Assembly (NCBI GenBank): GCA_040954595.2
Contig: CM082585.2
Coordinates: 7,851,353-7,915,352, forward strand
Direction: 5' to 3'
Length of the DNA stretch: 64,000 bases
Source of the DNA: Balanoglossus misakiensis
Taxonomy: Eukaryota > Animalia > Hemichordata
Shown here: positions 557 to 27,500 of the stretch, piece by piece
Numbering within the stretch: the first letter of the stretch is position 1
Layout: each line of letters starts with the position of its first letter
Translations under genes and position numbers: made by a program
Notes under the pieces: generated by a model
The model's input: the letters and a program-made list of their open reading frames with translations, nothing else
Told to the model about the DNA's origin: nothing
Databases searched by the model: none

Positions 557-3500
557 ATGGAACTCAGATTACTCTTGGCTCTGGGAAGTCTTGTACTCCT
601 ACTGACAGGTAAGCTATCAATGAACATCGGAATTTCATTTCTTGGAACATTATCCAGTACATGATCAGGCACACACTGTACCAATTAAAAGTTACTGATT
701 ACCTAGTTAGTTACCAAACAAGCACATTATTTGGGTTAATTTGTCCTACAAAAGTATTTATTTTTCCCAAAATGATTGTTAATTGAATTTCGAGGAAATT
801 TATTAGCTACACCAGCAGGAAAATTAAAACACTATATCCAAATCAACAGTTACTTTTTCGCATACATCTATGTATTGGTCAGAAGCTGATAACACCAATG
901 TCTAAATATATTAATATAAATATCCTACAGCTACTCCAACCAGTACTACAACCACCCAGTCAACAACAGGTAGTTATATGTTTTTTTTTCTATTTTTGCC
1001 GTTTTATTGTTATATGTAATCAGTAACAACGAATAAGCTGGGAAAATATATTAATATATGAATTTATTAATCCTACAGCCGCCACGACAGGTATTACAAC
1101 CCCGCCACCACCGACCTCAGCAAAATCAACAGCAGGTAGTTATACTTTTTATGTTAATTTTGCCATTTTATTGTTATTTGTATTCAGGAACAACGAATAA
1201 GCTGGGAAAATATTTTAATATATGAATTTATTAATTCTACAGCCCCTACGACACTTAAAACAACCCTGCCGCTGACAACCTCCAGAAAAACAACAACAGG
1301 TAATTATACTTTTATTTTATTTTTTGCTATTTTATTGTTATTTGTAATCAGGAACAACGAATAAGCTGGGAAAATATATTAATATATGAATTTATTAATC
1401 CTACAGCCACCACGACAGGTATTACAACCCCGCCACTGACGACCTCTGGAAAAACAACAGCAGGTAGTCATACTTTTTATTTTATTTTTTGCTGTTTTAT
1501 TGTTATTTGTAATCAGAAACTACTAATAACCTGGGAAAAATATATTAATATATGAAGTTATTAATTCTACAGCCACCACGTTAGTTACTACAACCCAGCC
1601 ACGGACAACCTCCGCACAAACAACAGCAGGTAATTATACTTTTTATTTTATTTTTTGCTGTTTTATTGTTATTTGTAATCAGAAACTACTAATAACCTGG
1701 GAAAAATATATCAATATATGATTTTATTAATCCTACAGCCACCACGACAGGTAAAACAACCCTGCCACCAACGACCTCTGGACAAATAACAACAGGTAGT
1801 TATAGGTTTTTTCTATTTTTGCCATTTTATTTTTTATCTGTAATCAGGAACAGCGAATAACCTGGGAAAATATTTTAATATATGAAGCTATTAATCCTAC
1901 AGCCACCACGTTAGTTACTACAACCCAGCCACGGACAACCTCCGCACAAACAACAGCAGGTAATTATACTTTTTATTTTATTTTTTGCTGTTTTATTGTT
2001 ATTTGTAATCAGAAACTACTAATAAGCTGGGAAAATATATTAATATATGAATTTATTAATTCTACAGCCACCACGACAGATATTACAACCCAGCCACCAA
2101 CGACCTCTGGACAAATAACAACAGGTAGTTATAGGTTTTTCTATTCCATATTAGTGTTATTTATAATCAGGATCAGCGAATAACCTGGGAAAATATATTA
2201 ATATATGAATTTATTAATTCTACAGCTGCAGCCACCACGACAGATATTACAACCCAGCCACCAACGACCTCTGGACAAACAACAACAGGTAGTTTTACTG
2301 GTATTTTGCTGTTTTATTTCTATTTGCAATCAGGACCAAATAATGCGCTACTTGATGCAATCGAACAGGGGCAGTCACCTGTCTATAGACGTGTGCAATT
2401 AAAGTAAAGGTTTATTCATGCATGCTTGAATAAACACTTCCAACTTGATTGGGTTATTTTTGTGACAATCATTATCAAAGGCTCAGTCAACATATTTCAT
2501 CAAAGTTTGAGTGCTTTACATTACATTATCCAGATAGCAGGGTGTCATTCCTTTAGCAGCTTTCAGTCTTTGATGACATGAATTTTGACATATGAGCATT
2601 GATAAGGAATCTCACACACAGCAATAAGATGGTTTGTCTGGGTTCCAGCCAGAGCTTTGGGTATTACCCAGGCTGAGAAATTGTTACAGCTGTTGCCATT
2701 TTAAACCTGTGAGTAAAGAACCTTACCGTGTTTGGACAGTATAAAATTCTTTTCCAATGCTACACTTCAAGTTTATGACGTCATCCAATTAAAGTATACA
2801 CATACGGTACCAATAGAGCATGTGGATAGATAATCGACTGGAATCCAGCAAGACCAGATAAGTTGACCGTCCACTGCAAGAAAAAGTCACAAAATAGTAG
2901 GATAGGTGTTAATAGAATATGGAAACAAAATATTACATCATTTCATACCATTGTGAATAGGGCAAACGAGTAATGGTCATCACCACTTTTTTTGTGTGTG
3001 AATCTATTCCATTCCAGCTTGGACCTGCCATGCGTTATCCGATCCCATATCTGGGAGTCTAGACTGTACAAATGGGTTCTACTACAACAGTACATGCACA
3101 TTCAGCTGTGATACAGGCTATGATGGAAATGGTACAGTATCAAGTGTGTGCGAATCGACTCAAAATTGGGATCCACCAATTGATTACACATGTACAGGTG
3201 AGTGATAAAATGTTCGACTGATGGAACTTTCTTATTAAATGTACAGATAATTCAATACCATGAGTTTTTCATTAGTTCACAGCAATTAAATGATATTCAT
3301 TCAAAAAACAATTAGCTGTAAATATCACAAGATATAAAAATACAAAGCACAAACTGACATAATATATCATGCAAGATATTTGCCACTATTGTTTAATAAA
3401 GAGAAATTGCACCTAATTTTACGTATCTAATAATTGCATTTTCAATTTTGAATCTATTCCTCTCCAGCTTGGACATGTCCTGCATTATCAGATCCCACAT

Positions 3501-6500
3501 CTGGTAGTCTAATCTGTTCAAATGAGTTTTACTACACTAGTATCTGCACATTCAGCTGTGATTCAGGCTATGATGGAGGTGGTACAGAATCAAGGATTTG
3601 TGAATCAACTCGCAATTGGGATGCATCAGATAATTTCATGTGTACAGGTGGGTGATTGCAATGTCTACTGATGGAACTTCCTTCTTTGAAATGTCCAGAT
3701 AATTCAATACATTGCAACTGATTAGTTGATGGTAATTAAATAAATAGCAGTATACATTACAAGACACAAAATATAGCATATTAAAAATATAACTGACATA
3801 ATACCGTAAATCAAGAAAATTACGTGACAGGAAATTTTCGCGATATACATGTTACGCGCCGATTAATTTTCGCATTCTCATCATTGCGGTATTTTCCATT
3901 CCAGCTTGGGCATGTCCTGATTTACATTACCCAACATCTGGAAGTTTAAACTGTACAAATGGGTTCCATTACAATAGTAACTGTACATTCAGCTGTGATT
4001 CAGGCTATGATGGAAGTGGTACAGTATCAAGAATATGTGAATTAAATCGTAATTGGGATGCCTTGGATAACTTCACATGTACAGGTGTGTGATAAACCTT
4101 TCCCTGCCTTCTACAGAAGAGAATTAGCGAGCAAAACTACTGTAGAGTAAAATAAACATAAAACATCAATTCATCTGCAGGATATCTTCATGCATGGCAA
4201 CCAACGTTCTTGCGAACAATTACTGTTTTACAGACATCGAGCCACCGTTGTTTCAAAACTGTCCGGATAACATTACAACGACAACAACTGATGAGGAACA
4301 AGGTCTGGCAAACGTTTCCTGGACGGAGCCTACTGTATCTGACAATTCTGGAGAAACGCCTTCTCTTATGAGAACACACCAACCTAATGATGGCTTTTTC
4401 ATTGGAAGTACATTGGTCACTTATACTGCATGGGATGCCGATGGAAACCAAGCTGAATGCACATTTGTTGTCCATGTACAAGGTAAAGTTATTCTTACTA
4501 TGATCCTGTCTTCTTTTTAGAGCCCATTTGTAAACCTTCAGAAGCACATGCGTTTATCAACATTGTATTTTAACATGAGCTAAGGTTCTAATGCTAATCT
4601 GTTTCAGATCTACCTCCACCAACACTGCAATATGTTTGGGCTTCCTCATATCAACGTGGAACTGTCAGACTGCAAGTGCGGTTGAACTATGATTACCATT
4701 ACTACTACGGCTACTATTACGAGTATGAAGTGTCTTACTGGATTGTTCCGGATGCAGATAACAGCATTACGATAAGGGATAACGGAACAGATAGATATGC
4801 TGACACTACCTTATACAACTTGAACCCAAACGAAACATATGAGATGTCAATTGTGATATTTCATTATGGTCGTATCAGTGAGCCCTTCTTGATGAATTTT
4901 ACTGGTAGGTTTCAACAAGTCTCACTGGCTTTCAATACTAACAACTAAATATCATGCTTTCACATGACATATATCCCGTAGTTTTAGGCTTAGATTCTAT
5001 TGGCAAAGAAACACAGGACTAAATTCTTGTTAATTTAAGTACACAGAATGTAAAATAACACTGAATTACGATTGAAACATTCACACAAACTATTGTTTTC
5101 TGCAAATTAACTATTTGGTAATGATGAAAAAAGGAAAGGTTAGTTGGAAGTGAGATTTAACAGCACTATCACTGAATAAGTAGAAGTTGCAATTCTGAGG
5201 AACATTTATCCTGGTTTAGGTGATTGCAAATGTTGAATAGGTTTAGGTAAAAGTTTCTGATATGCTGCCTTTGAATTAATGCAAATTGTGTGCATATTAG
5301 CAGGTTTCAAATGACTTCTTAATTCCATGTCACCTACACATACTAGGCAATGCAATTATAAAATGGATTCTTTCAAAATGTGATGATAATAGCAAAACTT
5401 TTATTCTTGGTACAGATCTTTGCGCAGATGACCCATGCCAGCTGAATGGTATCTGTGAAAGCTTTACTATAAGATGGTATTATGGACACTTTTCCGAATA
5501 TTACAACTGTAACTGTCGACCTGGTTTTGTGGGCCATAACTGCACAGGTGAGAAATCACTGACAAAGGCGTTACCAATAAATCTAAAATTCTGTAATAAA
5601 TGGATTGCTGTCACATTTAGAATATGGGGAATCTAAGGCTAAAAAGTACTGTTGTTTGGTTTTGTACAGGATTCAGTGGCTAGACGGTGTAGTTGGAAGT
5701 GCGGGGTCAACTCCCAGTCCATTCAGTAAATTGCAAATTGAAGCTATTCACAACATTCAATTTTTTTAACAACACAAGTTTTATAAAGTAACAATCCATT
5801 TATGTATGGTTGTTTTACTTATCTGATTTTATCAGCATATCGACATTTCAGGTCAACATCTCTTCATCTGATAATGCGTTTACAACCAGAATTCAGAGAT
5901 AATGGGCAATTTGCTCTGGTGACGTGGGCATTTTTTCTTCTTTTAGTTGAAATTTGTGCCATGAAAATGTGTTGATGAAAGAGATATTGATATTTTTCAG
6001 AACTTTTCATATATGCTGAGTTAATTGATACCACAACAACAACAGTGACAGTAAGATGGAGGCTGACAAGTGAAAGTTATCAATGGGAAATCAAAGAAAT
6101 TATAGCCATCGATTTGATTGACGAGGAAATGGTTGAATTTCGTTCTTTTGAGTACTACTTGCAGCGTGAAACCACATTGGGTCATCTGAGACCAGGAGCA
6201 TCATACGTTATTAAAGTTACCGCATTTGGATGGAACAATTTCAACATCAGCGCCGATGACATTATTGCGAACATAGGCAAGTAACCAGCAAATATAGACA
6301 AAATTAACACAGCAATGTTGGTTTTGTAAATTTATGATGATATAGTTGACTCTTTTGAGCCTGTTCTTGTAGTAAATAACGACGGGTGACAATCGTAGCT
6401 AATTGTTTTTGATCTCAAACCTTCTCCTATAAACAAAAGTTTGAAAGTGTGAAAATACAACAAAGATGTACGCTTTGCCTTTTTCGACTAACCCCCCTCT

Positions 6501-9500
6501 AAAACATGTTTGCTCTTACTCCAAAGTAAAAGTGATTAATCTTATCAGTGTTTTCTGTTAAAGTTATCATTTGTTTGGTAACTGTAGATTTTACTGATAT
6601 GATTAATTGTTAAGTTTACTAGTATGAACTATGACCACAAAATATGATGTTTCTTAATGCTCTTGCAATACTAATTATCAAGACATCAACACTTGTCTAG
6701 GAATGTTGCTGATCATAAATTACACATCAGGCAGATCGAGGTGCCTCTTGGGTCTCATGTTTGTTACTTTCGTCACAGCTCCGGAACCACCAATATGGGC
6801 AGGTATCACCAACTATAACTCAACAAGTGTTTCTCTCTACTGGAATCCCGGATATACAGAATATGATTCGTTTGACGTTGGGTATGTGTGTGAATCTACC
6901 GGACTGATGGCAAACACCACACTGAATGTGACATCTACAGATACCACTTTGGTCGACTTGCTACCGAACAACACGTGTTGGGTTGATATCACTACGTGGA
7001 GTAATGGTCTTAGAAGTGCCAATAAGTACACAGTGATTATAAGAACAGGTAAAAGACATTTTGGTGTTTATTTGATTTTCGTCGCTGTTTTTTCTCTGTG
7101 TATGCGTATCACACTGATATCATGGATGCTTGACAATTTTACCAACAGCTCCAGATTATTGTGCTGATTCACCATGTGGATTTAACAGTAGCAACTGCCA
7201 AAGTGATAACAATGGATACAATTGCTTCTGCCCCTCCATGCCCGACATAGGTAAGGCTTGATCAACTTTACCAATGATCTCTGTTGATCCAAAATATATC
7301 AATTGTTTCTATTTCTTTTAAACATGCAAAGCAGTTAATTATAAAGTAGATTTTGCATTGAATAGTCATCTTTGGAACACAGCGTTTCCTGCCTGCGATT
7401 TGTTGAAGCCATGCAACGATCGTGTTATCGGTTAACAATGACCATGTTAACAATTAGGACAACCATTGCCTGGAAATCATCTGCACATGTGCACACATGA
7501 CGAAATGTGTGTTGATAGCTGCAGCTGACCCCACAATGTGTGGCATCTACTGTTATTCCATGGTCACTCAATATGTACCAGTACCAGTATATACCAAATA
7601 TTCTACCACTTATATCCATTTATGGTTGGGTAGACATTTTCGCTCATGACCATGTTCTGCAAGACCTTCGCCTACATTTGTTAGTGAAACTGTGATTCAA
7701 TAAACCTCTGCATGGGCTGCTTTCAATGATGGCCAAGACCTGTTATAACACAGGTTACCTTTTTACTTTAATACATCTGCCTGTCCTTTCCTTCTGAATT
7801 GTTATCTTGCAATCAATTCTTGCAAACGTCCTGTTCACTAATCTGATGACTAATTTCTAACCTTTACTGTCTAGAGCCGACAACAATTACAACATCTACC
7901 GATCCGACAGAAGGTAAAAAATCAATCAAGTATTGAAAACACCTATTCATTTATTTTGAGTTACATCCATTTAAAGGTTGTTAATATTCATCAAAAGAAG
8001 AGCTTCCAAAATTGTCTTTTTTGTTGCAAATTACTGACATTGAAAGTGTGTTGCCAAGTGCTCTTGAATTATAATAAGTTGTATGTCTTTATTAAATATA
8101 GTACTAATATCATGTTCAACTAATGTAATTACTCTTATGATATATATCTGCAGGTATACCAACAGTGACTTGGGTTTATGCGTCATCACATCAGCGTGGG
8201 ACTGTTGAATTGTACTGGGATTTGGACTATCAGTGTGGTGACTACTGCCAACTTGATGTGTCTTACTGGACTTACCCTGATGAGATTGACACCATCACAG
8301 TCACACAAAATGCAACATATGATTCTGGTTCAGTTAACCTGCAAAACTTGATACCTAACGAAACCTATGTAGTATCATTTGTGGTATTTCGTGGCGGAAG
8401 TGAAAGTGAGCCGTTTGTAATGAATTTCACCGGTAGGTTAAAATTATGAATGCACACACAGGTTGATTTCTGTGTATGCTGATTTTTGGACAGATGTATG
8501 TATTCACATTATATATATATTGTACACATGTATATTCACTTCCACTTTTTTTAAGTTTTGCTTTCATTTCCCCAGTGTGAACATATTAAACTGACCCTGT
8601 CATTTATTGGTACTCAAAATGTAAATTTGGTATACATGTACAAGTATAAATAACAATGCAATTAGTACATTCACTAGTTACTTAATATGATGAAAACATC
8701 TAGGTAATTGTACTAATGTAAACATTAATGTATTCATTGTCAACATTTCCCTTTATTTAACACATTATCTAGGCAGAAATCGTAACAGACTTTTACAGTA
8801 CGAGATAATGCTTTTTGCCAATTTGCACCACTTTCAGATTTGTGATGCTTTACTAAATGACACTGGAAAATTGCAATGCCTAAAACATCAGTGCAATAAC
8901 AAATAAATTGTATACATAGATATGTTATTTTATACATAGCCAAATTAAATCAATAGTTATGCACTGTTACTGGCGATATGTGATGATATTTTCATTCCTT
9001 ATTATTCTCAAACAGATCTTTGTGCTATCAATCAATGCCAAAGTGTGACATGCAACAGCTACACTGACGCAAGCAGATATGGGTATTATGACGAAAGTTA
9101 CTACTGCTACTGTCTACCAGGTTTTTTTGGCCAGAACTGCGATGTTGGTGAGTATTAAACTTGTGCTTTTCTAGCAGTCCTTAATCAATCAACCTAAATG
9201 TGGAGTACATCAAATGGATATTATGGATTGTAGAGTAATATTCACTCATCATTTTCTCCCAATCTGTTTCAGAACTTTTGATCAATGGTGAATTAGTTGA
9301 CACGACAACAACGACATTAACTATCCGATGGCATTTATCAGATGAGAGATATAGAGGGAACATCAAGGATTTTATAGCGATTGACTTGACTGGAGCCGAC
9401 ATGAAGGAATCCCGCTCTTATGAGTACTATATACGCCGTGAAACAACGCTTGGTCGTCTGAGGCCAGGAACATCATACACCGTGACCATTACAGCATTTG

Positions 9501-12500
9501 GATTGAATGATTTCAACATCAGTGATGCAGTCATAGCTAATTTAGGTATCTGTATTCAACTGCTAAATGCTAAAGATATTTGCGCCTTTAGTGCCTTGAG
9601 TATAAATATATTTACATGAGGCACAACAAGCGTTAAGTTACACATGGGTTTCCAAATGTTGTCCCTGTTATTTAGGCACAAGAGAAACAATTTGGCGGGC
9701 TTAGAACTTATTGTACATTGAACTGTTTACGTCACAGCTCCAGAACCACCAACATGGGTTGGTATCAGCCACTACAATTCAACAAGTGTGTCCATCTACT
9801 GGAATCCTGGATACACAGAACATGATTTCTTTCAAGTGACGTATATGTGTGAATCTACAAATATAACACTCAATGCAACGTCTAGTGATGTAACTCTCAA
9901 TGACTTGCCACCCAACACCACTTGTCAGATTGACGTCAGCACTTGGAGTAACGGTTTGCGAAGCACAGCCACGTATACAAAGATGATAACGACAGGTAAA
10001 TTGTTGGTTTCATTTGAAAGAATGAGAATGTAATACCACAAAAGTCAGACAGACAAGTCATGTCATTGTGACACGCAGACTGACAAAGTGCAGGCATTTT
10101 ACTGTGTCCAGTTAGTGATTATCTACACTGGTCAATTATGATTGTTCATTACTTAATATATGGCGAATTTGATTTCCCCTGTCCAGCTCCTGACTTCTGT
10201 GCCAGTTCACCCTGTGGTTTTAACACCAGCAGCAGCTGCAGGAGTGATATCAATGGATTTACGTGCTCATGCCCAGCCATTCCAGGTATGGTTGAATTAT
10301 CTTTTTGGATATAAGAAACTTCACTTCAGGCAATTTGTCATATGGAAAAATTAATGTACTTCAAATAGGCACAGTGGTGCTCGAGCCTCTTCTGCACTGT
10401 AACAATAAAGTACTATTCCCATGTTATCTGTACCAACTCTAGTCTTTACACCAACTGGGACTGAAACATCATCTAAATGGACCACTGAACAAGCTACAAC
10501 ACAACCTGTGACAACACCTGAGGACACCACGCAACCCGAGTCGACAGCAGCCACCACTTGGCCTAACATCACAACATCGTCACCAACAGCAGATCTATCA
10601 ACTACACAATATGTTGCCGAACCAACTACAACATGTAATTATTTCTGTTTATTACAAGTAGGATATTGCTTTTGGGTGGTGGCATGTCATCTTACTTTGA
10701 ATTTAGTATTTATAGACGATCCCCACTTTGAACATATTATAGGTCGAAATTATGCAATATTAATAAATAAAGCACACAAGAAACCAACAGTATTTTTTTT
10801 CAGATCCACGCCTCCCACAAGTGTACCGGGTCAAAGCCTACACATATCAGCGTGGAACTGTTGAATTAAAGATTGAATTGGATTACTGGAACTATGATGG
10901 CTACGACATCGAAATCTCTTACTGGGTGTATCCTTATATGAATGACAGCATTGTAATATCAGAAAATGGCACATACCACTACCATGAAACTACTCTATAC
11001 AACTTGGAATCAACTGAAACATACGTAGTATCGGTTTTGGTATATCATGGTTCTAGTGTAAGAGAGCCGTTTGAAATGAATTACACCGGTAAGTTTCAAT
11101 TTTTATCAGTCTCTGTGTGTATATGTGTGTATATCTATGCAATGTGTTTAATGTGTGTTCATTTCTTTCTTTCTTTGTGGTATACTTAATGATACAATGC
11201 ACAGTAAACAAATTAATGATCATCAACTAAATGCTTCCAACAGTACTTATAATCAATCAAAATTAAATCAATAGGTTTGTAATGCACTGTTACTGGCGAT
11301 ATGTGATGATATTTTCATTCCTTATTTTACTCAACCAGATCTTTGTGCTATCAATCAATGCCAAAGTGTGTACGCATGCAACAGCTACACTGAAGCAAGC
11401 AGCAATGGGTATTATTACGAAAGTTACTCCTGCTACTGTCTACCAGGTTTTTTTGGCCAGAACTGCGATGTTGGTGAGTATTAAACTTGTGCTTTTCTAG
11501 CAGTCCTTAATCAATTAACCTTAATGTGGAGCACATCAAATGGATATTATGGATTGTAGAGTAATATTCACTCGTCATTTTCTCCCAATTTGGTAATGTT
11601 TTCATCATGCTTTCATATTTGGTTTGTGTCACTTTTACAATATTCAACCTCCTATATTTATCAGGATTTTCAGACAACATTGGATATTTCACATTTTACT
11701 AATAATTATGGGATGCAATTAGCAAATACTATTGCTGGGCATTACCTATAAGTACCTTTAAAATTGTAAACAATTTAATAAGTCATTGAGATATGAATCA
11801 TATTCACTCTTATTTGCTTTGGACCTTATTGATTCTTGTCAGGTAATTAACGCCATATAAGTGACATTAAACTGAAATATAAAACCTTACTGATGATTCT
11901 CTATTAAATGAACTTTACTTATAAATGATCTTTTACACTTTGTTTCAGAACTTTTGATCAATGGCGAATTAGTTGACGCGACAACAACGACATTAACTAT
12001 CCGATGGGATTTATCAGATAACAGATATAGAGGGGACATCAAGGATTTTATAGTGATTGACTTGACTGGAGCCGACATGAAGGAATCCCGTTCTTACGAG
12101 TACTATATACACCGTGAAACAACGCTTGGTCATCTGAGGCCAGGAACATCATATGTTGTGAACATTACAGCATTTGGATGGAATGATTTCAACATCAGTG
12201 ATGCAGTCATAGCTAATTTAGGTATCTGTATTCAACTGCTAGAAATAATGCTAAAATATTTGCGCCCTTAAATGTGAAACCAGAGTATAAACATACTTAC
12301 ATGAGGCAGAGCGTTAAGTTACACATGGGTTTCCAAATGTTGTCCCTGTTATTTGGGCACAGGAGAGTGTGCTTAATTTTTCCTTATGCTAGCACTGCCT
12401 CTTATTGTACACTCATGACTGAGGCTGCATGACTGAACTGTTTATTATACATCACAGCTCCAGAACCACCAACATGGGTTGGTATCAGCCACTACAATTC

Positions 12501-15500
12501 AACAAGTGTGTCCATCTACTGGAATCCTGGATACACAGAACATGATTTCTTTCAAGTGACGTATATGTGTGAATCTACAAATATAACACTCAATGCGATG
12601 TCTAGTGATGTAACTCTCAATGACTTGCCACCCAACACCACTTGTCAGATTGACGTCACCACTTGGAGTAATGGTTTGCGAAGCGCAGCCACGTATACAA
12701 AGATGATAACAACAGGTAAATTGTTGGTTTCATTTGAAAGAATGAGAATGTAATACCACAAAAGTCAGACAGACAAGTCATTTCATTGTGACACGCAGAC
12801 TGACAAAGTGCAGGCATTTTTACTGTGACCACTTAGTGATTATTCTACACTGGTCAATTATGATTGTTCATTACTTAATATATGGCGAATTTGATTTCTC
12901 CTGTCCAGCTCCTGACTTCTGTGCCAGTTCACCCTGTGGTTTTAACACCAGCAGCAGCTGCAGGAGTGATCTCAATGGATTTACATGCTCATGCCCAGCC
13001 ATTCCAGGTAAGGTTGAATTATCTTTTTGAAACTTCACTTCAGGCAATTTGTCATATGGAAAAATTAATGTACTTCAAATAGGCACAGTGGTGCTCGAGC
13101 CTCTTCTGCATTGTAACAATAAAGTACTACATGTATTCCCATGTTATCTGTATCAACTCTAGTCTTTACACCAACTGGGACTGAAACGTCATCTAAACAA
13201 ACTACAACACAACCTGTGATAACACCTGAGGACACCACGCAACCCGAGTCGACAGCAGCCAACACTTGGCCATCCAACACAACAGCATCGCCAACAACAG
13301 ATCAATCAACTACACAATATGTTGCCGAACCAACTACACCATGTAATTATTTCTGTTTATTACAAGTAGGATATTGCTTTTGGGTGGTGGCATGTCATCT
13401 TACTTTGAATTTAGTATTTAGTAGAAGATCCCCACTTTGAACATATTTGTCTATAGGTAGAAATTATGCAATATTAATAAAGCACACAAGAAACCAACAG
13501 TATTTTTTTTCAGATCCACACCTCCCACAAGTGTACTGGGTCGAAGCCTTCTCACATCAGCGTGGAACTGTTAAATTAACGATTGATTTGGATAACTATT
13601 ACTATGATGGCTACAACATCGAAATCTCTTACTGGGTGCATCCTTATATAAATGACAGCATTGTAATATCAGAAAACGGCACATACACCTACCATGAAAC
13701 TACTCTATACAACTTGGAATCAACTGAAACATACGTAGTATCGGTTTTGGTATACCATGGTTCTCGTGTAACTGAGCCGTTTGAAATGAATTTCACCGGT
13801 AGGTTTCAATTTATCAGTCTCTGCGTGTATATGTGTGTATATCTATGCAATGTGTGTAATGTGTGTTCCTTTCTTTCTTTGTGGTATACTTATACACTGT
13901 ACAGTACACAAATTAATGATCGTCAACTAAATGCTTCCATCAGTACTTATAATCATTTATTAAGACATGACTCTCTTGTTATATTGCCACTGGGAAGTGA
14001 TAATAATTAAAGTCTCTTTCCTAAAACAGATATCTGCGCTGTTAATCCATGCCAGTCGAATGCTACATGCAGCAGCTATATTCGAACATACAGCTCTGGA
14101 TACTCTTCTGAATGGTACAACTGTCATTGTCTCCCAGGGTTTCTTGGCCAAAATTGTGAAACGGGTGAGAGAGGTCATGCTGTTTTCACAATTTCTAGGT
14201 TCTCATCCAATCGCGACGATGTACTTTGTAACGAATGATAATTGAATATGATGTCCGCCATAGTTTGTTGCTTAATGGTAATGGTTCTTGGATTTCTAAT
14301 TTCATTACGAAATTAATGGTCAACTATTTGCAGGAATATACTTCTTCCATTCTTTAATGTTATCATTACACTTGTCAATTATGTTGTGTGTGGCAAAAAG
14401 TACAGTCCATCCACCATTAAGATATTTTATTACAAATTAGACACATTATACCAGTAGTGTGTACAATGTATTAGTTAGAAGATTTTTGTATTTTTGAAAC
14501 CAGCTTATTTTTTATTCATAAATTGCTACTTTTTCTTCTAGACATGAAGTACTTGAACTTCTTTATGGTGACAGCTGCATGGGCACTTGTAAATTGACTT
14601 TTGTTTTAAAAGCTTCTACTTTCAATGCCTTGGTTAGTTTAATATTTTTTCTTCTTTCAGAACTGTTAATCTACATGGAATTAGTGGACACGACAACAAC
14701 AACGCTAACCATCAGATGGAACTTAACAGATGACAATTATCGATGGGAAATTAACGATATAATAGCCATTGATTTGATTGATGATCAAATGATTGAATTC
14801 CGTTCACTCAAGTATTATGGTCGCCGTAAAACAACACTGGGTTATCTGAGGCCAGGAATGTCATACGCTGTGACTGTTACGGCAACATTCAAATGGTACA
14901 ATTTCAACATTAGTGATGCAGTTATGGCATATTTAGGTAACATTAACTAAACACTGCAAATTTAAATATTGCAACATCAATGATTTAGGATTATAATTTG
15001 GAGTAAATCCTGAACTCAAATTATGTTTGGTACTCATGCAAATATGACCAAATTTTAAACAAAATGTGTTTCCTGTATCACGCCCTTTAGAATCAAGGCA
15101 GGAAATTATAAACAGGAAATATATTTTTCCTGTATATCACATAGGACTGTGTAACGTACGTAATTGAAAACATGCTTGATAATTGACTTTTTACTTCACG
15201 TGTGGGGTGACCTTTCAAGTAGAAAAAAAGGTGTGTTAATTGTTAACATGTTAAGCACTGATTTCAAACAATTTACACATGAGTGACCGAAACATGGAGT
15301 ACCAAAAACTGTGTCTAAATCTTCTAAAACCTGACAGTTATAAAGACACAATTGATTTTAGTTCAGTCGGTAGAATTCTGCAATCCTCTACAGTAAAACC
15401 TCATTGTCACCTATTCACATTGTTTCTTCTATCACAGTTCCAGAACCACCCATTTCAGCTGACATCACCTACTATGACTCAACAAGCATATCTGTATATT

Positions 15501-18500
15501 GGAACCCTGGATACACAAAATATGATTTCTTTGAAGTGACCTACATGTGCGAAACACAGTCAAATATCACATTGAATGTGACATCTACAGATATCACTTT
15601 GGTCGACTTGCTGCCAAATAGAACATGTGTGATTGATATCAGCACATGGAGCAATGGTGTAAGAAGTGTTGACAAGTACACAATGCTGACAAGAACAGGT
15701 ACATTTATTATATTTGTTACATGAGCAAACTATAATGAAAGTGCCTTTGCATAATTAGGTATACTGAAAAATCAAATAATGTTCACTTGTTTTACATCTT
15801 AAGTTTGTTTTTAACCTTCAACTATCTTTATTTTGCCTGATAATTGAAATTGGGCAAGGCAACTAATGATTTGCAAGTCACAATAATAAACATCAGAATC
15901 TTTGGCATCTGACACTCAATCACTTAATTTTCACTTGCAGCTCCTGACTACTGTACCAGTTCACCATGTGGTTATAACACTACCAGCAGTTGCAGAAGTG
16001 ATATTAATGGATTTACATGCTTGTGTCCAGCTATGCCTGGCAACGGTAAGTTTGGGTTCATAAATAGGAGAAACATTTGAATATCTTCCACTCAATTGCG
16101 TTCAAGTACTCACAAAGTCACATCCAGCATATGAGAGTCAAACACAAGTTAATTTTAATACAAAATTTACCAACTGCAAAGGGTGTAGTAAATTTACTTG
16201 TTCTTTGAAATATAACTTAGATATAGTGTTCTGCTGACTGATTAACAATCATCATTAACCGATAGAACTTTGAGAGACCCAATATTTATTTGAGTTGATA
16301 CACTTAAAATCAAACAAATGCTCTATATGTTCAGATCTGCACATGATGCACAGTCCAGAGGGAACAAATGGGAATTTTGAATAAAAACACAAATGATAAC
16401 ACCGAATCTTGTTCTGAGTGCATCATGGTGTCAAGATGTTCAGTCTCTGAACCACTTACATGTTCTGCATCATAACTTGTAATATCCACAAAAACTAACA
16501 AGTTAGCTTAAATCAAAAATGTCAATTGCAGCTGTGCCAATATATAGTAATTAGAGTGCCCTTGTCCATGCATTTCAGATGTTACAACTGAAGTAAATGG
16601 TGTTCCAACAACCACAGTTAGTTCATCAACGATTAATGCAGGTTAGCTGTGTTTTTTTAATTGATTAAGATCATAGGTGTGCCAAAAATATCACCAAGCA
16701 TTGATGTACATATTCCTGCTAACAAGGATTAAGCTCTTAAGTTTGATAACATGTTGTTACTATGTTATTGCCTTTTTCATGCTATGGTCCTACACTGTTG
16801 TTTCCCTCAACTAGGTTATACTTTAGGTATAACACTGGAGCTGGTTCATTACGGAAGTAGAGATATTAACGTTACTTGGGAAGTGACCGAACACCCTTGG
16901 TACAGTTGGATCGATTATGACTTTGCCGTAACTTTTGAGTCATGTACAGCGAGAAGCTTGCAGTGTCACGAGTGCTACTCAATGCAACTTGACGGACTGA
17001 ACCCCGGTGCAATGTATGCTATACGAGTCTCAGCGTCTACTCCTGAAAGGGCGGAAGTAACGACCAGCAACTATATAAACATCCGGACAGGTGTGTTTGT
17101 ACAGATCTAGGACTCAGCTTATTAGGAAATAAGGAAATGTCAGTTATAATTGCCACTGCCACAACAATAGCAAAGGTGGAATGGTTTAATTAAGCCATTA
17201 AGCTGTAAATGTGTGGATTCTCAACAGAAAACTAAATATTGAGGCTCGAACAAGATTGTTACTGATGATGCATTCTGTATACTTTTAACTTCTTCTTTTT
17301 TCCAGTTCCTGAACCGCCTCTTTATGTATATGTGCACTATGCAAGTCCAGTTGTACTTTCCGTACTCGTTGCACTAGCACATGACATGGTCTACTCCAAC
17401 ATCGAGATTGCATACTGGCCAGTGGGTGAACCCCATAGAAGAAAGACAGTCACGGATGGAACCATTGATGACTTGCTTTCCAATGCGACATACACCGTTT
17501 CCGTGGTTGTGGTCAGTGGCGACCTCAGAAGTGAGCCATATGAGTTGATTACGGCAGGTAGGGGACTGTGAACTCGAACTTAATTTTTTGTGATATAACA
17601 TACAAATACAATGTAACACAATTTCAATGGCCATCTACACCTGATTAACTAACATCCCTCCATGTTAACAGCATGCGTTCAAATTGATATTTCCAACCAA
17701 AAATGCACATATTTGTCGAATCTCTTTCTCTCTTGTCATGATCATGGCATCTTTTATACATTAATTTCCCACAGATCACTGTGGAAGCGAGCCTTGTATG
17801 TGGGGAGCAAACTGTAGCAGTACCCACGATGCCTTTGAATGTCAATGCCCTCCAGGGACAGTGGGAGAGAGATGTGAAATTGGTCAGTGACTGATTACTT
17901 GTTAACAAAACATGTTTTGCCTAATTACATTTTTTGTGTTAATTTTTAACAAAATTACAGCATTTTGATTATTGCCAATTGTTGAACATTACTAATTTGC
18001 AGTTAGTCTTACAACTGGTATGATTGTATTTTTCAAATCCATTAGACGTGAACGAATGTTCTATCTCAGAGGTCTGTGGTCCACACGCTTATTGTATCAA
18101 CATCCAAGGATCTTACTCTTGCATTTGTTTTGATGGATTTGATAAAAACATCACCGGATGGTGCGTGGGTAAGGATCTCAATATAGTCAAACTGTAGTTT
18201 CACATCGAACCTCAGCCAACCACTTTCTTTCCAAGATGAAGTAAACCACTACAACAACATAATTTTAAGCATCAACCGTTGTACTATTGAGTTATTCGCA
18301 ATATTTTTCAAATGGTACATCAACTGAAGCTTTGCAGTCAACTTCATAAACAATGTTTACAGTCAACCAACTGTTATGCTTATCAATATGTCATGCATAT
18401 ATGCTAAGAACCTGCGCCATTATTACCAAATGAATTCAAGACTGGACCTACATCATACCTTCAACAGGACCTTGCTTTGATAAGCTAAAATCGTCAGGGT

Positions 18501-21500
18501 TAAGGAAGGCGAACAAAATACGCTGCAATTGATTCACAGAACTATATACCACATTTTCGCAAGAGAAAATTGCATTGAGCACATCATCAATCTTATTTTT
18601 TTTATTGACAGACATTGATGAGTGTAGGGATGGTACTGATAACTGCACGTCGGCGTCTTGCATAAATACCGTTGGATCCTATAGATGCCAGTGTTGGTCA
18701 GGGTTTAGAATGTACGATAATACAACATGTGAAGATATCAACGAATGCACAGAAAGGATGCCATGTCACCAAAACGCACAGTGCGTCAACTATCCTGGAT
18801 TGTACAATTGTATCTGTGACGATGGACACTTTTCAGATGGCTATGAGTGTTTTGGCAAGTTCTGGTTAATTTTATACTACATTTGTGAATATGGGCAAAT
18901 TCATCAATTGTTGTGAAATAGTCACCTCTGTTGATATCACAAAAATTTCTCAACGCGAAAATTTTCCATATGGAATAATTATGTCACTTATTTATCCACT
19001 GACAGATTATACTTGTTAAGGAATTGAACTTTAAATTCCAGTATAGTCATTGCATATACCGCATTACGCATTACAGTCATATATAAGAATGCAAAATAAG
19101 CCCAGTCACTCAAACACAAATGGAAACATATTTTTTTTCCAGAATTAGAAATCTCTGTAGAAGTATCGACATTAAACACGACATCAGTAACCATAACATG
19201 GCGTCTGACAAATGACTCCTACTGGAGCCGTTTCAAAGATAACGTCACGGTCGATATACGTGGAGATATGGGACTACAGACAAAACATATGCCTTCATGG
19301 CCTCGAGAAACGACATTGTCCGGCTTGAAACCAGGAGCAGATTATGCAATCACTGTCACAGCATTCGGAGACAATGGTTACTCTCACAATACCAGTCACG
19401 AAATTGGTGTGATGTTAGGTAAGCAAATAAATATAGAAAGAAAATATTCCCAAACACAAAGCCCGACTCTCAGACAACATTATTGACGCCTGTTCTATGG
19501 CTAAATTGCCATGGAATATCTGACAAGTTTTTATCAACGAACACTACAGTGTAAAAGTATACAAGCACCTATGCATTATACCCAGGCAACATGAAAGTTG
19601 AGATCTTATTGATGACAGATTTTTACAAGCACTGCCATTCTGTGAAAACAAATGTCTCGATCACAATGCATGGGCATATGTAAATGATTGTATACCTTAA
19701 AATAGAAAACTTTTAGGAATAACCTACCAAGTCCGTAGACGTAGACTTGACTGAAGCAGATTCCTATTGTGAATTTACAGCCCCTGAACCACCTGTGTCA
19801 GCTAATGCCATCTATGATGGTGGACAGGATGCGGTGGTATACTGGGATCCTGGATTCACCGAGTATGACGCATTCGAAGTGTGGCAAACCTGCGAGCTTG
19901 GTCATTCACGAACGGTTCAGAATGTGACAATGATAGTGAATTTACCGCCGAACAGTACCTGTTGGATAGACATTGAAACGATTAGCAGAAATGTACGAAG
20001 CGATGACAAGTATCGCCATACCATAGAGACAGGTGATTTATTCTCACATATACCGGTAGACATTCTCATGTTTAATATATCTGGGGGTTTTTATTCAAGT
20101 ATTGCAAACAAGTGAAAACATACCAGTCATCTAAGTATTACTAACCACAAGCTGGTTAATACGCATATACCAATTACCTAGGATGTTTGAGACTTTTGAG
20201 CACACATCCAAGAATGTTTTGGGAAGTTTAAAGTCCTAGAGCTATCAACAATGAAAATGTTGTGCATACGATTTCACAGGCCCTGATTACTGCGAAGGCA
20301 GTCCATGTGCTGAGGGTGCAACTTGTATCAGTGGTAACCAAGGCTTTCACTGTATATGTCCAAGTGGGAAAACTGGCAATCTCTGTGAAGTTGGTGAGCA
20401 ACATGCACTAGTTTTTTTTAGTCATCAAGTTAAATTTATTTTCATCCATGGCATCGATTTCAAACTTGGGCAAACATTTACATAATCTGGGGTCTCCACT
20501 TATTTCTTTGAAATGTGATTACATTTGTATGGTAAAATCAAGGGTATGGTAATCAAAGTAAATGATGTAATGCTTATTATACCCTTCATGTTTTTTTTAA
20601 AGTGGCGGATAGCTGTCAAAGCAACCCATGTTCTGGTGGTGCAACATGTGTAGTTGTTGCTGTTGGATTTGAGTGTTTGTGTCCACTTGGCAGAGATGGT
20701 GACAGGTGTGAATTAGGTAAATCCGCACATATTTCATACATTTAATTTTAAAGGGGGACGGTTGTCGTAACTGAGCATGTGCGATGTTTCTGTTTACAAA
20801 CATACCATTGGTTATGTTTCCACTATTCATGGAGACCAAGGCTGCCAACCAATACATGACGCTTTGTTTTTGTTTTGTTTTTTGTTTATGAAAAGATGTA
20901 AAAGCTGTGAAAATGTCGGCTGAGTTGGCAGGTGCCAACTTCACTGAGGATCTAAGGGACAGGGATTCAGCAAGATATAGACAACTTGAAGCAGACATCG
21001 TTAAACAGGTATGTTGACACCATAACTGTCAACTACGACAGGTGTCATTTCTGAAAATGTACACATCATTATTACATAACTGTATTCAAATTATACTTTT
21101 CATTTCCTTTGTAACACATTCTGTCCAACTTAGATGTTCTGTGGATCAATTTATAAAATGTATATTAAATTCCCCTTCAGATAACATCAGTTCTATTCAA
21201 TGCCACTGCTTTTCAGAAGGTGGAGATTGTCGAATTTAAGTAAGTTAGACTTTAATATTATTGAATATTTCCATATTATTTACTTTAATATTAATTATTT
21301 TGGATTATTTCTATTGTTTTTGAAAACTTACATAATCTCTTTGTATACACATACAGAAAACTTGTCTACAAAATGTCGATTCTAGCATTAACCCATGAAA
21401 AACCTTTGCAGATGTCAGTTTTTGTTATTTCAATAATATGGAATCACAGTCACTGAGATGAGGATTAATTTGCTTTTATTTTCGGTTAGACCTGGTTCAA

Positions 21501-24500
21501 TAATAGTGGTCATGAACATTGTGTTGCTTGCCAACTCAACTACTTCAGATGAAGACATGCTGATTCAAGATTTGACCACCAACTTAGAAACAAATGGATT
21601 GCTGAACTACACAGTTGATACGATTGAACGCTATGAAGGTAAGATGTGCTTAAAAGGATGGTAAATGAAACATTTTGAGTAGAGAAAGATTAGAAAGAAT
21701 GATCTTAAAACATTGATGAGCTGTGTTATAGAACCACAATTAGGGCAGTAAATCTTCAACATCGACCATTACATCATGACTGCCTGTTATGTAAGGACAA
21801 CAAAACCACATTGCTCTTGTATATAAACCAAACGGTTCCTTTTAGATCACTGCCAGGATGCTCCCTGTTTGAATAATGGAATGTGCGTATCTGAAGAAAC
21901 AGACTATCGCTGCTACTGTAGGGATAACTTCATTGGTAGACACTGTGAAACAGGTAGGAAAATAACACCCTGTCATAAAATATTGTTCATCAACATCAAC
22001 ATTTTAATTTGCCAAACCCAATACACACTGAGAAGTGTCACAGGTTTCTTGAGAGTCCTTCGTATCTAAACGTTTAGCTAAATATTCCGTAAACCCATAC
22101 TTTTTTACACAGCTTTCAATGAGAAGATACATTTATTGAGTGGATACAAGTTTCTAAGTGTAACCGAGGAGGAAGAACTTGAAAACCCTGTATATGGTGT
22201 GGCGTCCTTGGTGACAAACCCAAGTGTTGTTCTGCGTTATGAGATGGTGTCCAGTCGCGACAGTTCATCGTTCAATTTAGATAATATATCGGGAGAACTT
22301 AATGCTACATTTCAAAAGTTTGACCATGAAGAGAAAACTAGGTATGAGGTTGAGGTAGACATCTTCGATTTGGAGGGAGCCACGCGTGTCCTTGTGATAT
22401 TTGACGTCATCAATATCAACGATAACAGCCCCATCTTCACACACACGCCATATATAAATAGTGTAATGGAGTACGCGCCTGTCGGGAGTCTTGTTGCCAT
22501 GGTCACAGCAGTAGATGCCGACGAGGGCGCGGTGTTGACCTACTCACTCTCCGGTTCAAACTCGTACATCAATTCTCTGTTCTACATCAACGACTACGGG
22601 GCAATCACTGTGGAGGGAATCCTGAACAGGCAACGTTTGAGGAACGACAGCCAACTGGAAGACGGTAAACTGCTCGTATTCGCGTCCGTCAGCGACGGCG
22701 AACGAACTGGACAGGCGACGGTCTTCTTGCAAATCGAGCCCCTGCACGTCAGAGACACTGAGGTGGACGAAAGAAGTGATATGGTTGCCATCTACGAGAA
22801 TGCAACAGTTGGAACCACGGTAGCCGACGTCGGCATATCAGTCCCCGAAAATGATGACACCACTTACAAGTACAGAATCATTGGCTTCAAAGATTCAGGC
22901 GACTTTCCGTTTACAGTTAATGAAACAACAGTAAGTTTATCAGTATTTAATTTTCAGACATAACTCATTACAATGGTTAATGGTTTTAACAGGCAAAGTT
23001 TCAGAATCAGAATTAACAACATATGCACGTTATGGTAGAAAAATCTTGAGAGAATCATGCTATTGTCTGGCTAAAAAAAATGTATTAATCTCCTATTTTC
23101 TTAAATTTACATTTCATAATGGAAAACAAATAACAAAGGGAAATTGTTTATTAAATGTTTCTCTGTTGCCACTCTTCAGGGAGAAATAACAACAAGACTT
23201 CTGCTAGATAGAGAGAAAGAAAGCTCTTACATTTTTTCTGTCATTGCAAGAGAAAGTGAATGCCTATCTGAAGTTGAGGTTTGTATTGTTCATATTTTAC
23301 AAGGATATTTACACAATGTAGTACTGTGGATATGAACTTTATTGGATATTCTTCATGTTGACTCTCGGAACATTAGCGACTTCCTACCAGTCTGATGTAT
23401 AGAGACCTCTATACTGGGAATCAGGGGTGAAAGATAAAAAAAGTTCACTCTCATATTGTTTGTTTCTTGTTTTCATAGATATACCTTGAAATCGAAATAG
23501 GAGACGTGAATGACGAAAGTCCTATATTCAGTGAAACATCATACAGCGCCACCTTGCGGGAGGATGCTGTTGAGGAGGAGCTTATCATTGTGAGTGTAAA
23601 ATTATGATTTTATGGAACTGCTGTAAGCTAAATGCATTACAGAGATCAGAACATGGTAGCTGTTCATCTTTGCTACTAAATATTTGCGATCATACCCATC
23701 CATATTCTAAACTTTATTATAGGTCAAATATACAATTTGTATACATATATGGACTTCCAGCAATAATGACCAGTATGTGATGTCAGGTGTTTTGAAAATA
23801 GTTAGCAATCCTGCCCCACAGGTGGCACCTGCCATCGGTCACACACTAAAGACAAACGTCTCCGATACCATCCTTACATCCGCATTTATTTGGCTCACAG
23901 ATTCCAGCCATCCTGGCAACAGATGAGGATGTTGGACTGAATGCTGATATCAGATACTACTTAGCAGGACCTGGAAGTGATCTCTTTGACATCGACCCGA
24001 AGAGCGGCAAGGTTCGATGTAAGGCCAATTCAAACTTCGATTATGAAACAGTTGTAGAGTATCGCTTGGCCGTAATTGCCAAGGATAAGGATGGCAGCGA
24101 TGACAGCAACATGGCAAGTGTGCCTTTGGTTGTCAGGATCACAGATGCCAATGACAACAGCCCCGTTTTCACGACACAGCACTGGAACTTGACTGTAAGC
24201 GAGGATTCCCCAGTCAGGACCTCTCTGGCATCAATACAAGCTACAGACGCTGATGAGGGTCCTAACGGTGATATTTTGTATTATATCCGGGACGGAGGCG
24301 AGGGGAAGTTCAGAATGGAGCTGACAACAGGCGTGCTTTCCACAAGTTCTGAACTTGATAGGGAGACGCACGATACCTATGTCTTGGACGTGATCGCGAG
24401 AGACCAGGGGTTTCCAGCAAGAGAGACTCTCATACAGGTGCATGTGACAGTTACAGATGTCAATGACAACCAGCCAATCTTTGGCCAGCAGTTTTACACT

Positions 24501-27500
24501 GGACACACTCCAGAAGGAAATACTGGAAATCCATCAATCCTGACTGTTCATGCTGTTGATCCCGACTTGAATGAGAATGGCGCGATATCATACTCCTTGG
24601 AGGACCCTTCAATCTTCAGCATCGATCATGCCACTGGGGTTCTATCCTCCGCGTCTCCACTGAATCGAGAGGATATTCCGTCGTTTGATCTCGTTATCAT
24701 TGCAACCGATGGTGGAGTGCCCGCGAAGTCAACTTCTGTTCAAGCGAGAGTTGTAGTTGAAGATGTCAATGACAATGAGCCTAAATTCTCCTCGGACAGC
24801 TATGCCACAACAATGCTTATGTCACCTGACGGAATCAGGCCTGGCACGTTAGTGACACTGATAACAGCCACAGACCTCGACATCGGCAGTAATGCTGAAA
24901 TCGCATTCTCGGTGATCGATGAGGACCATAACAGGACGTTTGAAATTGCTCCTGATGGTGTTGTGAAAGTAAAAGAAACTTTCAGCAGTAATGGTCCAAT
25001 CACTTTTAATATATCCGCCAAAGATGGCGGCTCACCTCAGCTGGAGGACACAGCAGTGCTGACCATAACATTCAAACAACCCTCGGAAGAATTTGAATTC
25101 AATGAAACTGCATATGATTTCAGTATAACGGAGAATGAACATGGCCAAGTCGTGGGAACTGTCACAGCCTTCAGCAGAAGAAATTTAGATATCATTTTCG
25201 ATCTGCCATTTGATATACCCGGCATCACAATAGACAGTCAGATGGTAAGTTACTCTATACAAAATAACTCAAGGCTGGTAATAACGAGCCAATAATACAA
25301 AAGGTGGGTGAACACTATCAGTGATTAAAATATACAAAATGACCAGCCGTCTTCACCAATTACATTAACACACATTTAAGTTTCATATTCATGGTCAACA
25401 AATTTCTGTAAATCAGCAGCATGCAATTTCGTCTCTGAATCTCTGCTTTACAGGGTGATATCAACATAACTCGTCCATTTGACAGAGAAGAACTGTCTGA
25501 AATATCATTCAACGTGCTTGCTCATGGCTATGATGAAGATCGCGGATTTGCCTTTGCCACAGTGAGTTGTTAACTAGTGCAAAAAATATATGTTAAACAT
25601 CAATAACGGTATGTCTGACACAATGTAATTAAACTTCTGCTGAACAGAGCAAATAAGTGCCTATTATTCTGATTTACAAATTTCGCATATTGTTAATATT
25701 TCCATGCACTCAGCAGAAACAGTTTTTTGATTATCTAAATTCTTATTCAGGTAAAAATAAGTATAGAAGATGCGAATGATGAAACTCCATACTTTGTTTA
25801 CCCTGGAGAACCTGTCTTATGGAGGGAATTGGTGGAAAATACTCTCAACACATCATTCTTACAGTTGCATGTGGAGGATGACGATGACTTCGGCCCTAAT
25901 TCTGAAATTGAATATGCTATCGATGATGGAAATGACGGTGAGTAATAGTAATGCATGTCACATGTAATTAACTATTCTCCCCTTTCCAAGGAAAATTACT
26001 GAATGTACACAAGCTCATGATCTGTTTTCAATTATATACATATTTTCCCATCTCTTACAGATGGTATATTTGATATAAATAGATTGACTGGTCTTATCGA
26101 CGTGGTTACAGAAGCAGACAGGGAGTATATTGAGTCGTACACTTTGATTGTTATGGTAACTAACAGCAACAAAATTGTTGATTTATGTGTAACTTTTGGT
26201 TCCCTATATTAAGGTGATGCTTTATGTTACTGTACCTTTCCAATGGTTTTAAACCCTTATTTCAAACCAGAGACAATCACCACAAACCACATCTAGATTC
26301 AACACTATGTTATGATTGAAAACATCACACATGTAGTTAGCATTCACCTGGTATATTAAATGTTCATCAGCAATTTCTGTTGTCTAGGCAAGAGATCAAG
26401 GTGATCCAGTGTTGTCGACGAGTGTTACCATAATCGTCGATATATTGGACGAAAATGACAATGAACCAAATATAACAGTGGGTGCAACCACGGAAAGTGT
26501 TGGAGAAAACATACCAAATGGAACTGAGGTAAGAAAGGTGGAAACATAATACAAATACTGAATGAAATCCATACAGGTACACATCAGTGCTTTTTTAATG
26601 AAGAACCTACATTAAGGTATATATATCCCTTCTACGTTTAAGGGAATGTCTATGCTTTGAACCACCTTGACCATATTTAACCATACATTGGCATGTAAAG
26701 TGCACCTTCTAGTACCATCTACACCAGAACACATGGGAACCATAATGCATTCTTTTGTTATAGGTAGCGTTTGTGGTAGCCACTGATATTGATGCTGGCA
26801 ACAATGCTGAAATCATCTTCCAACTGGAAGATGCTTCAAACGGCAACTTTTACATTGATGGCAAGTATATTATATCTAATTTAAATTATGGAAGTTATAT
26901 GGGCACAACTCGAATCAATAATTACTCTGCTATTTATTCTATTGAAAATGACACAGCTGCGTTTTAATGTAATCAGATTTTTTATTCACTTGCAACTAGT
27001 ATCCAGCCTCTTTTGTTGACAATTGTATGAATCAAACTTAATCCACCATTTTACCTTTTCCAGAACTTTCTGGTTCGATACAGACTGCCAAATTACTTGA
27101 CCGAGAAACAGTGGACACACACACCATAGAAGTGGTGGCTGTTGACAAAGGCGACCCCAGGAAAACCTCCTCACCTTTACAGATTACATTCATCATAGAC
27201 GACTACAATGACAACCCTCCAGAGTTTGATAATGCCACCTATTATACACAACTCGGAAAGGATTCCCCACCCGGTACTGAGGTGTTGACTGTGTCTGCTA
27301 CAGATAAGGATGCTGGAATCAATGCCATGTTCTCATATGATATTACAGGTATGTCCAATGGTGTCACAACTGCGTATTGAAGTACATTTCGATGTCACAT
27401 TTCATATTAAACACGGTCAACTCAAGTGTTTTCTCAGTTAAAGAGAAACATGTTGGTTACATACCCCCGGTACTGGTACAGACAGACTGGTTAAATTAAA

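Follow-up and report, generated by a model that had tools for sequence, protein, structure and literature searches.

Possible positive selection on one predicted face of a duplicated FN3 module in a giant acorn-worm cadherin gene

Have recently duplicated modules of a giant cadherin gene in the acorn worm Balanoglossus misakiensis diverged under positive selection, or by relaxed constraint and chance? The gene lies in a window of 64,000 nucleotides (nt) from GenBank assembly GCA_040954595.2 (contig CM082585.2, positions 7,851,353 to 7,915,352 of the forward strand; positions below count from the first letter of the window). Its predicted ectodomain carries four units of the order FN3a-EGF-FN3b-FN3c-EGF5-S/T, in which EGF5 is a five-Cys EGF exon and S/T a Ser/Thr-rich exon (Table 1). 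A preliminary description, made from the letters alone, had compared the two youngest copies, referred to here as A and B, found that they differ almost only by amino-acid-changing substitutions, and proposed that positive selection is focused on the FN3a+EGF pair. Our analysis gives moderate support to positive selection on the N-terminal half of FN3a, and we consider it somewhat more likely than not that such selection acted on one predicted face of the domain (strands A and B together with the BC loop).

Two young copies of a six-exon block

Each young copy comprises six phase-1 exons (EGF, FN3b, FN3c, EGF5, S/T and FN3a) with canonical AG/GT boundaries; the first five types of duplicated exon listed in the preliminary description stand, and the S/T exon had been left out. 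Self-comparison aligns 8942–9266 with 11260–11592 at 93% identity and 9265–11468 with 11941–14159 at 88%. As all module introns are in phase 1, whole blocks can be gained without a break of the reading frame. FN3a is at one end of the duplicated block and EGF at the other, so that the two were not duplicated together as neighbors.

The flanking introns, described earlier as highly similar, are so in six of the seven stretches, which differ by 1.2–5.4% (26/853 positions). The exception is the FN3b–FN3c intron (9546–9737 versus 12222–12457), with 36 differences in 188 positions (19%), six indels and apparently replaced blocks. In the young copies this intron is less than half as long as in units 1 and 4 (~500 bp). 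Note also that the EGF–FN3b intron of copy A (9148–9272) measures 125 bp versus 453–496 bp in the other three units, which suggests a deletion of ~350 bp that ended a few bases from the acceptor and left the acceptor intact.

At the junction between the copies, the switch from one intron type to the other lies 74–79 nt from the acceptor, whether measured in the junction intron or in those of units 4 and 2, i.e. in register within 5 nt. Downstream of the switch, the introns of units 2 and 4 display weak homology (p = 0.0025; upstream, p = 0.17). Such a junction likely results from unequal crossover between old paralogous units, through which the six-exon block would have been copied, and would be hard to obtain from an assembler joining haplotypes. 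Two of the 19 indels between the copies are exonic, both in frame (p = 8e-5), and all cysteines are kept, indicating that the exons of both copies are constrained. Pseudogene decay was rejected, as the frame is intact and the exonic indels are in frame; altered N-glycosylation was also rejected, as copies A and B have sequons at the same three positions.

Amino-acid changes in FN3a and competing explanations

Counted by codon, copies A and B differ by 19 nonsynonymous and 2 synonymous changes in FN3a, 6 and 0 in EGF (one 3-nt indel being present, next to one of the six), 10 and 4 in FN3b, 3 and 3 in FN3c, and 1 and 1 in EGF5; all five of the earlier counts are thereby reproduced. The S/T exon (10443–10634 versus 13163–13342) adds 9 and 3 plus a 12-nt indel; its ratio of nonsynonymous to synonymous rates (dN/dS) is 1.1 and its divergence exceeds that of its flanks (p about 0.01). 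The statement that the copies differ almost only by amino-acid changes is thus true of FN3a and EGF and not of the whole block, in which 48 nonsynonymous stand beside 13 synonymous codons. In any case, about three in four random changes would be expected to be nonsynonymous, and the maximum-likelihood (ML) dN/dS of the six exons together is 1.25 (p = 0.46; all codon models were run in our own GY94 implementation, not in PAML).

FN3a and EGF taken together have a dN/dS of 3.8 (p = 0.036), versus 0.79 for the other four exons, among which FN3c and EGF5 remain under purifying selection. In a model with shared dS, the dN/dS of FN3a is 2.3 (p = 0.016). Selection on EGF by itself was rejected: its own dN/dS test gives p = 0.17, and its 6 differences in 129 nt equal the rate of its flanking introns (9/193; p 0.25–0.31). 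The proposed focus thus narrows from the pair to the N-terminal half of FN3a. The proportion of differing nonsynonymous sites (pN) in FN3a is 0.10, two to three times the divergence of introns and synonymous sites combined as a neutral reference (p = 0.0001, or 0.014 if the outlier intron is included; kappa 1). Nonsynonymous transversions in FN3a number 13 on 215 sites, versus 16/1054 (p = 0.0004) or 29/1242 (p = 0.005) in the neutral reference. CpG hypermutability was rejected as the cause: CpG transitions make up 11 of the 15 synonymous differences, versus 4 of the 22 nonsynonymous differences of FN3a.

The FN3a changes are unevenly distributed along the exon, 15 of the 19 falling in codons 1–45. 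This half contains 16 nonsynonymous differences on 99.6 nonsynonymous sites and none on 35.4 synonymous sites (likelihood-ratio test, p = 0.002, for a window picked after inspection of the data), and codons 46–94 have a dN/dS of 0.5. A scan of the six exons under strict neutrality (3000 simulations) singled out 11 changes in 22 codons, with p <0.001–0.004 across three neutral rates, the lowest of which best reproduces the 13 observed synonymous codons.

The AlphaFold model of FN3a is a seven-strand fold, and Foldseek relates it to FN3 domains, e.g. tenascin 1ten (TM-score ~0.73–0.80); Pfam fn3 matches the old FN3a copies and not the young ones. Strand names follow the FN3 convention. Positions were classed as outward or inward from the model strands and the hydrophobicity in the five non-young copies, exposure being assigned without model coordinates. 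With these classes, 7 of the 8 outward positions of strands A and B have changed, versus 1 of 19 on the other five strands (p = 7e-5, for a contrast selected after the changes had been seen); changes affect 1 of 24 inward and 10 of 43 loop positions, and the contrast between the ABE and C/C'/F/G sheets gives p = 0.008. The alternating positions 8, 10, 12, 20, 22 and 24 of strands A and B all changed by single nucleotides, and 8 of the 19 changes alter charge.

Older copies add a time dimension. In a four-copy branch model, the young branches of FN3a have a dN/dS of 3.8 (p = 0.037). On the old branches its value is 0.52, versus 0.11–0.31 in the other modules; as the fastest module there, FN3a is an a priori candidate. 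Site models over five exon types give p = 0.013 for M8a versus M8 and p = 0.018 for M7 versus M8, the check proposed in the preliminary description, with three of the five top sites in FN3a; applied to FN3b+FN3c+EGF5 they give no signal. Identity to the acorn worm Ptychodera flava is 33–40% for FN3a and 30–45% for EGF, versus 46–61% for the other four module types, and sites that differ between A and B are more variable in the five other copies (p = 0.002). Asymmetric evolution of one copy only was rejected, derived changes numbering 6 versus 4 and 3 versus 3.

Several results weigh against positive selection, in addition to the whole-block ratio, the post hoc choice of the codon window and of the strand A+B contrast, and the indirect assignment of exposure. 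The significance of FN3a is modest: its within-exon ML dN/dS is 3.2 with a two-sided p of 0.074, and M1a versus M2a gives p = 0.16 (0.09 for FN3a alone). Correction for the choice of the best exon or pair yields p 0.011–0.054 with 2 synonymous changes in FN3a and 0.045–0.21 with 3. The total non-CpG divergence of FN3a is not above that of all introns (p = 0.16). Overlap with the sites variable among P. flava copies alone gives p = 0.08. Moreover, collapsing clustered changes weakens the signal. In three FN3a codons two positions differ; without these multi-nucleotide codons p becomes 0.11 for FN3a (0.15 if codons 27–29 are also left out) and 0.057 in the shared-dS model. The scan without the three clustered codons gives p 0.025, 0.10 and 0.28 at neutral rates of 2.8, 4 and 5.5%, and with clusters collapsed 0.006–0.09 at the low neutral rate and 0.23–0.54 at the high one. 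Altogether, the tests are divided over a dN/dS significantly above 1 after correction, on which the preliminary claim had been made to depend, and over its robustness to multi-nucleotide mutations: the FN3a branch model, M8a/M8, the scan and the face tests favor selection, and M1a/M2a, the two-sided within-exon test and the collapsed-cluster tests do not.

The main rival explanation, which we hold to be rather unlikely, combines relaxed constraint with multi-nucleotide events: exposed FN3a residues would drift with a dN/dS near 1, multi-nucleotide or slippage events would inflate the count, and synonymous changes would be few by luck. A whole-block ratio not different from 1 agrees with this, as does FN3b, whose dN/dS goes from 0.22 on old to 0.88 on young branches, pointing to general relaxation as well. 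So do the three two-position codons, the location of codons 27–29 in an indel-prone Tyr-rich loop and the loss of significance once such codons are dropped; multi-nucleotide codons are reported to give false positives in selection tests (10.1101/165969, excerpt). Drift, however, caps dN at the neutral rate, yet the pN of FN3a lies two to three times above it; the six alternating strand A/B positions all changed by single nucleotides, and the substitutions are no more clustered than random at the 3-nt scale (p = 0.47).

Gene conversion or an allele mosaic, in which the first half of one FN3a was overwritten by a distant paralogue or an old allele from outside the window, appears improbable. It would fit the patchy divergence along the block (intron heterogeneity p = 4e-14, FN3b–FN3c intron included), and donors probably exist, since one 39.76-Mb contig of P. 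flava bears several genes, or gene fragments, of the family. A tract from an older donor should, however, have brought synonymous differences, of which there are 0 on 35 sites beside the 16 nonsynonymous ones; polarity should be one-sided, whereas the derived FN3a states are interleaved (6 in A, 4 in B, 9 unpolarised); and neither young copy is closer to the old FN3a exons of the window (47–50% amino acid (aa) identity). That A and B are two haplotypes assembled in tandem, their differences being allelic, is very improbable. In a very polymorphic animal, alleles could differ by as much as the 3–5% seen between the copies at neutral sites. High heterozygosity does affect hemichordate assembly (PMC11175523, excerpt). 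Yet the junction, in register in homologous but weakly similar introns, fits recombination, frame and module order are preserved, and the window is free of N. The module had also been duplicated twice earlier in this gene, FN3a-EGF is present in three P. flava copies, and the nonsynonymous excess would need explaining even if allelic.

Relatives of the gene and a possible role

Among the 120 matches listed in a search with the large cadherin exon, four exceed 40% identity: three from P. flava (56, 55 and 41%) and one from Glandiceps talaboti (49%). The rest lie at 28–36%, and generic Fat/Ds/CDH23 matches reach only ~28–36%. The closest relatives among the matches listed are thus P. flava and Glandiceps proteins. 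This enteropneust SEA/EGF-cadherin set (P. flava XP_070539361.1, XP_070537579.1, XP_070539252.1 and XP_070537575.1; G. talaboti XP_077993211.1), whose names 'protocadherin Fat 4-like' and 'cadherin-23-like' are automatic, has a cadherin stalk 41–56% identical to that of the present gene. One relative, P0023, has the same SEA-EGF-cadherin-transmembrane order and aligns collinearly over residues 42–1657 at 40–68% (tblastn). The heads differ: MAM-SRCR-Sushi in XP_070539252.1, S/T with calcium-binding EGF in Glandiceps, and Sushi-HYR with four units in the present gene. Residues 1–35 of the Glandiceps protein P0036, which we take to resemble the end of an F-type lectin domain (a Pfam scan gave no match), are possibly another head on the common stalk.

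The repeated unit itself has counterparts in P. flava: XP_070537580.1 has FN3a-EGF-FN3b-FN3c-EGF5 behind a mucin, as in the present gene, and XP_070537577.1 has two FN3a-EGF pairs. A profile search with the four FN3a exons gave 11 proteins at E<=0.001, two of which, both from P. flava, match nearly the whole domain; the other nine were dropped as partial FN3-repeat matches (three of the nine were looked up). With the P. flava unit as query, there was no match among proteins of 1823–5000 aa, and only two P. flava proteins matched among those of 572–1822 aa. The young FN3a exons have no exact match in the protein collection.

By the domain tests run, the gene is neither a classical nor a Fat cadherin. 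With Fat/Dachsous and classical cadherins it has in common many cadherin repeats, a single pass and EGF domains; unlike in these, its cadherin repeats lie close to the membrane, behind ~2600 aa of mucin, Sushi, HYR, FN3, EGF and SEA. The catenin-binding domain of classical cadherins (PF01049, Cadherin_C) has no match in P0023, P0121, P0036 or the last exon of the present gene; this exon (114 aa) gave no Pfam match at all, in a scan that excluded the two short upstream tail exons. In Fat cadherins, EGF and laminin-G domains come after ~34 cadherin repeats at the N-terminus, whereas the three relatives scanned have 13–14 Pfam cadherin stretches and no laminin-G, and the cadherin exons of the present gene follow the FN3/EGF array on its C-terminal side.

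That repeated ectodomain modules can come under selection is well established, and the phenomenon reported here is of a known kind; in the literature searched we found no description of a hemichordate SEA-cadherin family or its function, although supplements of hemichordate genome papers may list these genes. The word 'cadherin' is absent from the main text of PMC11175523.

How might such a protein work? Modules would be gained by unequal crossover between phase-1 introns, as with the young six-exon block, and the two FN3a copies would then have diverged by amino-acid changes, likely under recurrent positive selection on one face. That outward face (strands A and B, BC loop) would bind a changing partner, and the cadherin/SEA stalk would hold out the arrayed FN3a-EGF modules for binding, on a surface that is epithelial or faces mucus. 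EBR1, from sea urchins and sea stars, is built of TSP and CUB domains. Together with abalone VERL, it is an egg receptor with expanded domain repeats, positive selection being reported on the receptor (PMC8830517, PMC5521101, excerpts); the likeness to the present gene lies in the tandem domain repeats of a large extracellular protein and in putative selection on the receptor side, and the difference from VERL in its ZP-N domains (PMC8830517), versus FN3/EGF here. In sponge aggregation factors, such as Amphimedon AqAF, clustered modular extracellular genes have phase-1 intron modules and an excess of nonsynonymous variation (PMC5400394, excerpt); their domains are Calx-beta/VWA/Wreath and they vary between individuals, whereas here the variation is between intragenic copies.

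Our results point to none of immunity, allorecognition and gamete binding in particular. By analogy, the most likely driver would be a microbe or parasite that attaches to the surface, a first guess made because sea-urchin genome scans, in which selection is strongest in proteins of adhesion and matrix and in receptors, argue for pathogens as drivers (PMC5521101, excerpt). Gamete or self-recognition partners would be alternatives, with repeat-expanded gamete receptors (PMC8830517) and sponge aggregation factors (PMC5400394) as analogues. Speculatively, and with more doubt than confidence, we suggest that the gene represents undescribed giant recognition cadherins of acorn worms, with a conserved SEA-cadherin-transmembrane stalk, a swappable head and an FN3a-EGF array that duplicates and diversifies one FN3 face; these would offer several specificities per polypeptide, as a natural monobody array for microbe, gamete or self recognition. 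If the reading of selection on one FN3a face holds, the case would contribute a candidate binding surface, mapped to a single FN3 type, as well as a lineage-specific family of cadherins; we found no recognition receptor of such architecture described in the deuterostome group concerned. The two FN3a domains, of 94 aa each and with 19 residue differences mostly on one predicted face, allow a direct test; should the reading fail, the locus would simply be a young duplication within a gene, of an ordinary kind and under relaxed constraint.

Organization of the gene and other features of the window

The exon chain was assembled manually from splice sites and tblastn matches. Its 71 introns have 66 GT and 5 GC donors, the latter exceeding the usual share. 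The predicted protein starts with a signal-peptide-like N-terminus and has a single strong hydrophobic segment in a hydropathy scan (aa 4241–4273), the predicted lone transmembrane segment. The domain order is Thr-rich mucin, three Sushi, HYR, the four units, more FN3/EGF, SEA, EGF, cadherin repeats, transmembrane segment and tyrosine-rich tail, Pfam scans having covered selected exons. SEA was assigned from a tblastn match to the SEA region of P0023 (58%) and a weak Pfam SEA match at 20907–21008 (E 0.011); Pfam Cadherin (PF00028) matches the two largest exons with E 4.3e-66 (four stretches) and 7.5e-13 (two stretches).

Table 1. Features of the predicted gene and of the rest of the window.
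Feature	Position	Strand	Details
Whole predicted gene	557..32393	+	72 exons, 4413 aa, ATG to single stop
Thr-rich mucin region	931..2288	+	nine mini-exons, mostly 57 nt, ~165-bp tandem repeats
Three Sushi exons and one HYR exon	3018..4482	+	Pfam Sushi 2.6e-7 (first exon), HYR 7e-23; other two Sushi by similarity
Old module unit 1, FN3a-EGF-FN3b-FN3c-EGF5-S/T	4608..7913	+	
Old FN3a exon of unit 2, outgroup	8154..8432	+	Pfam fn3 3e-5
Young copy A, EGF-FN3b-FN3c-EGF5-S/T-FN3a	8942..11259	+	self-BLAST, alignments, intron lengths
Six-Cys EGF exon, copy A	9016..9147	+	
FN3a exon, copy A	10804..11088	+	codons 1-45 = 10806-10940
Duplication junction in FN3a-EGF intron	11240..11275	.	unit-4-type upstream, unit-2-type downstream
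Young copy B, block identical in order to copy A	11260..13953	+	self-BLAST, alignments
Six-Cys EGF exon, copy B	11339..11473	+	
FN3a exon, copy B	13514..13798	+	predicted seven-strand FN3 fold, mean pLDDT (predicted local distance difference test) 89.8
Remainder of old unit 4, EGF-FN3b-FN3c-EGF5-S/T	14030..16641	+	
Additional FN3 and EGF exons, SEA over three exons (20905-21638), EGF	16815..21953	+	FN3/EGF labels by reading translation
Cadherin repeat exons	22113..30576	+	Pfam and tblastn to P0023
Transmembrane exon and cytoplasmic-tail exons	31341..32393	+	
EamA-family transporter open reading frame	39162-40226	+	intronless, GC-rich, 354 aa, Pfam 7.5e-16
Exons resembling, we presume, importin-alpha armadillo repeats	58228-59413	+	

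The Sushi exons (3018–4084) have pN 0.14–0.19, lower than the corresponding synonymous proportion (pS 0.26–0.40), which indicates purifying selection and makes them usable as a control within the gene. The mucin mini-exons diverge more than their introns, with a mean pairwise pN of 0.20 and pS of 0.15 (8 exons) versus 0.11 for introns (6), the pairs being non-independent; exons 1573 and 1903 encode identical peptides. The cytoplasmic tail (31615–32393) contains several tyrosine motifs and one proline motif, presumably resembling SH2/SH3 docking sites. Outside the gene, the EamA-family reading frame apparently lies within an intron of a minus-strand gene that has multiple exons.

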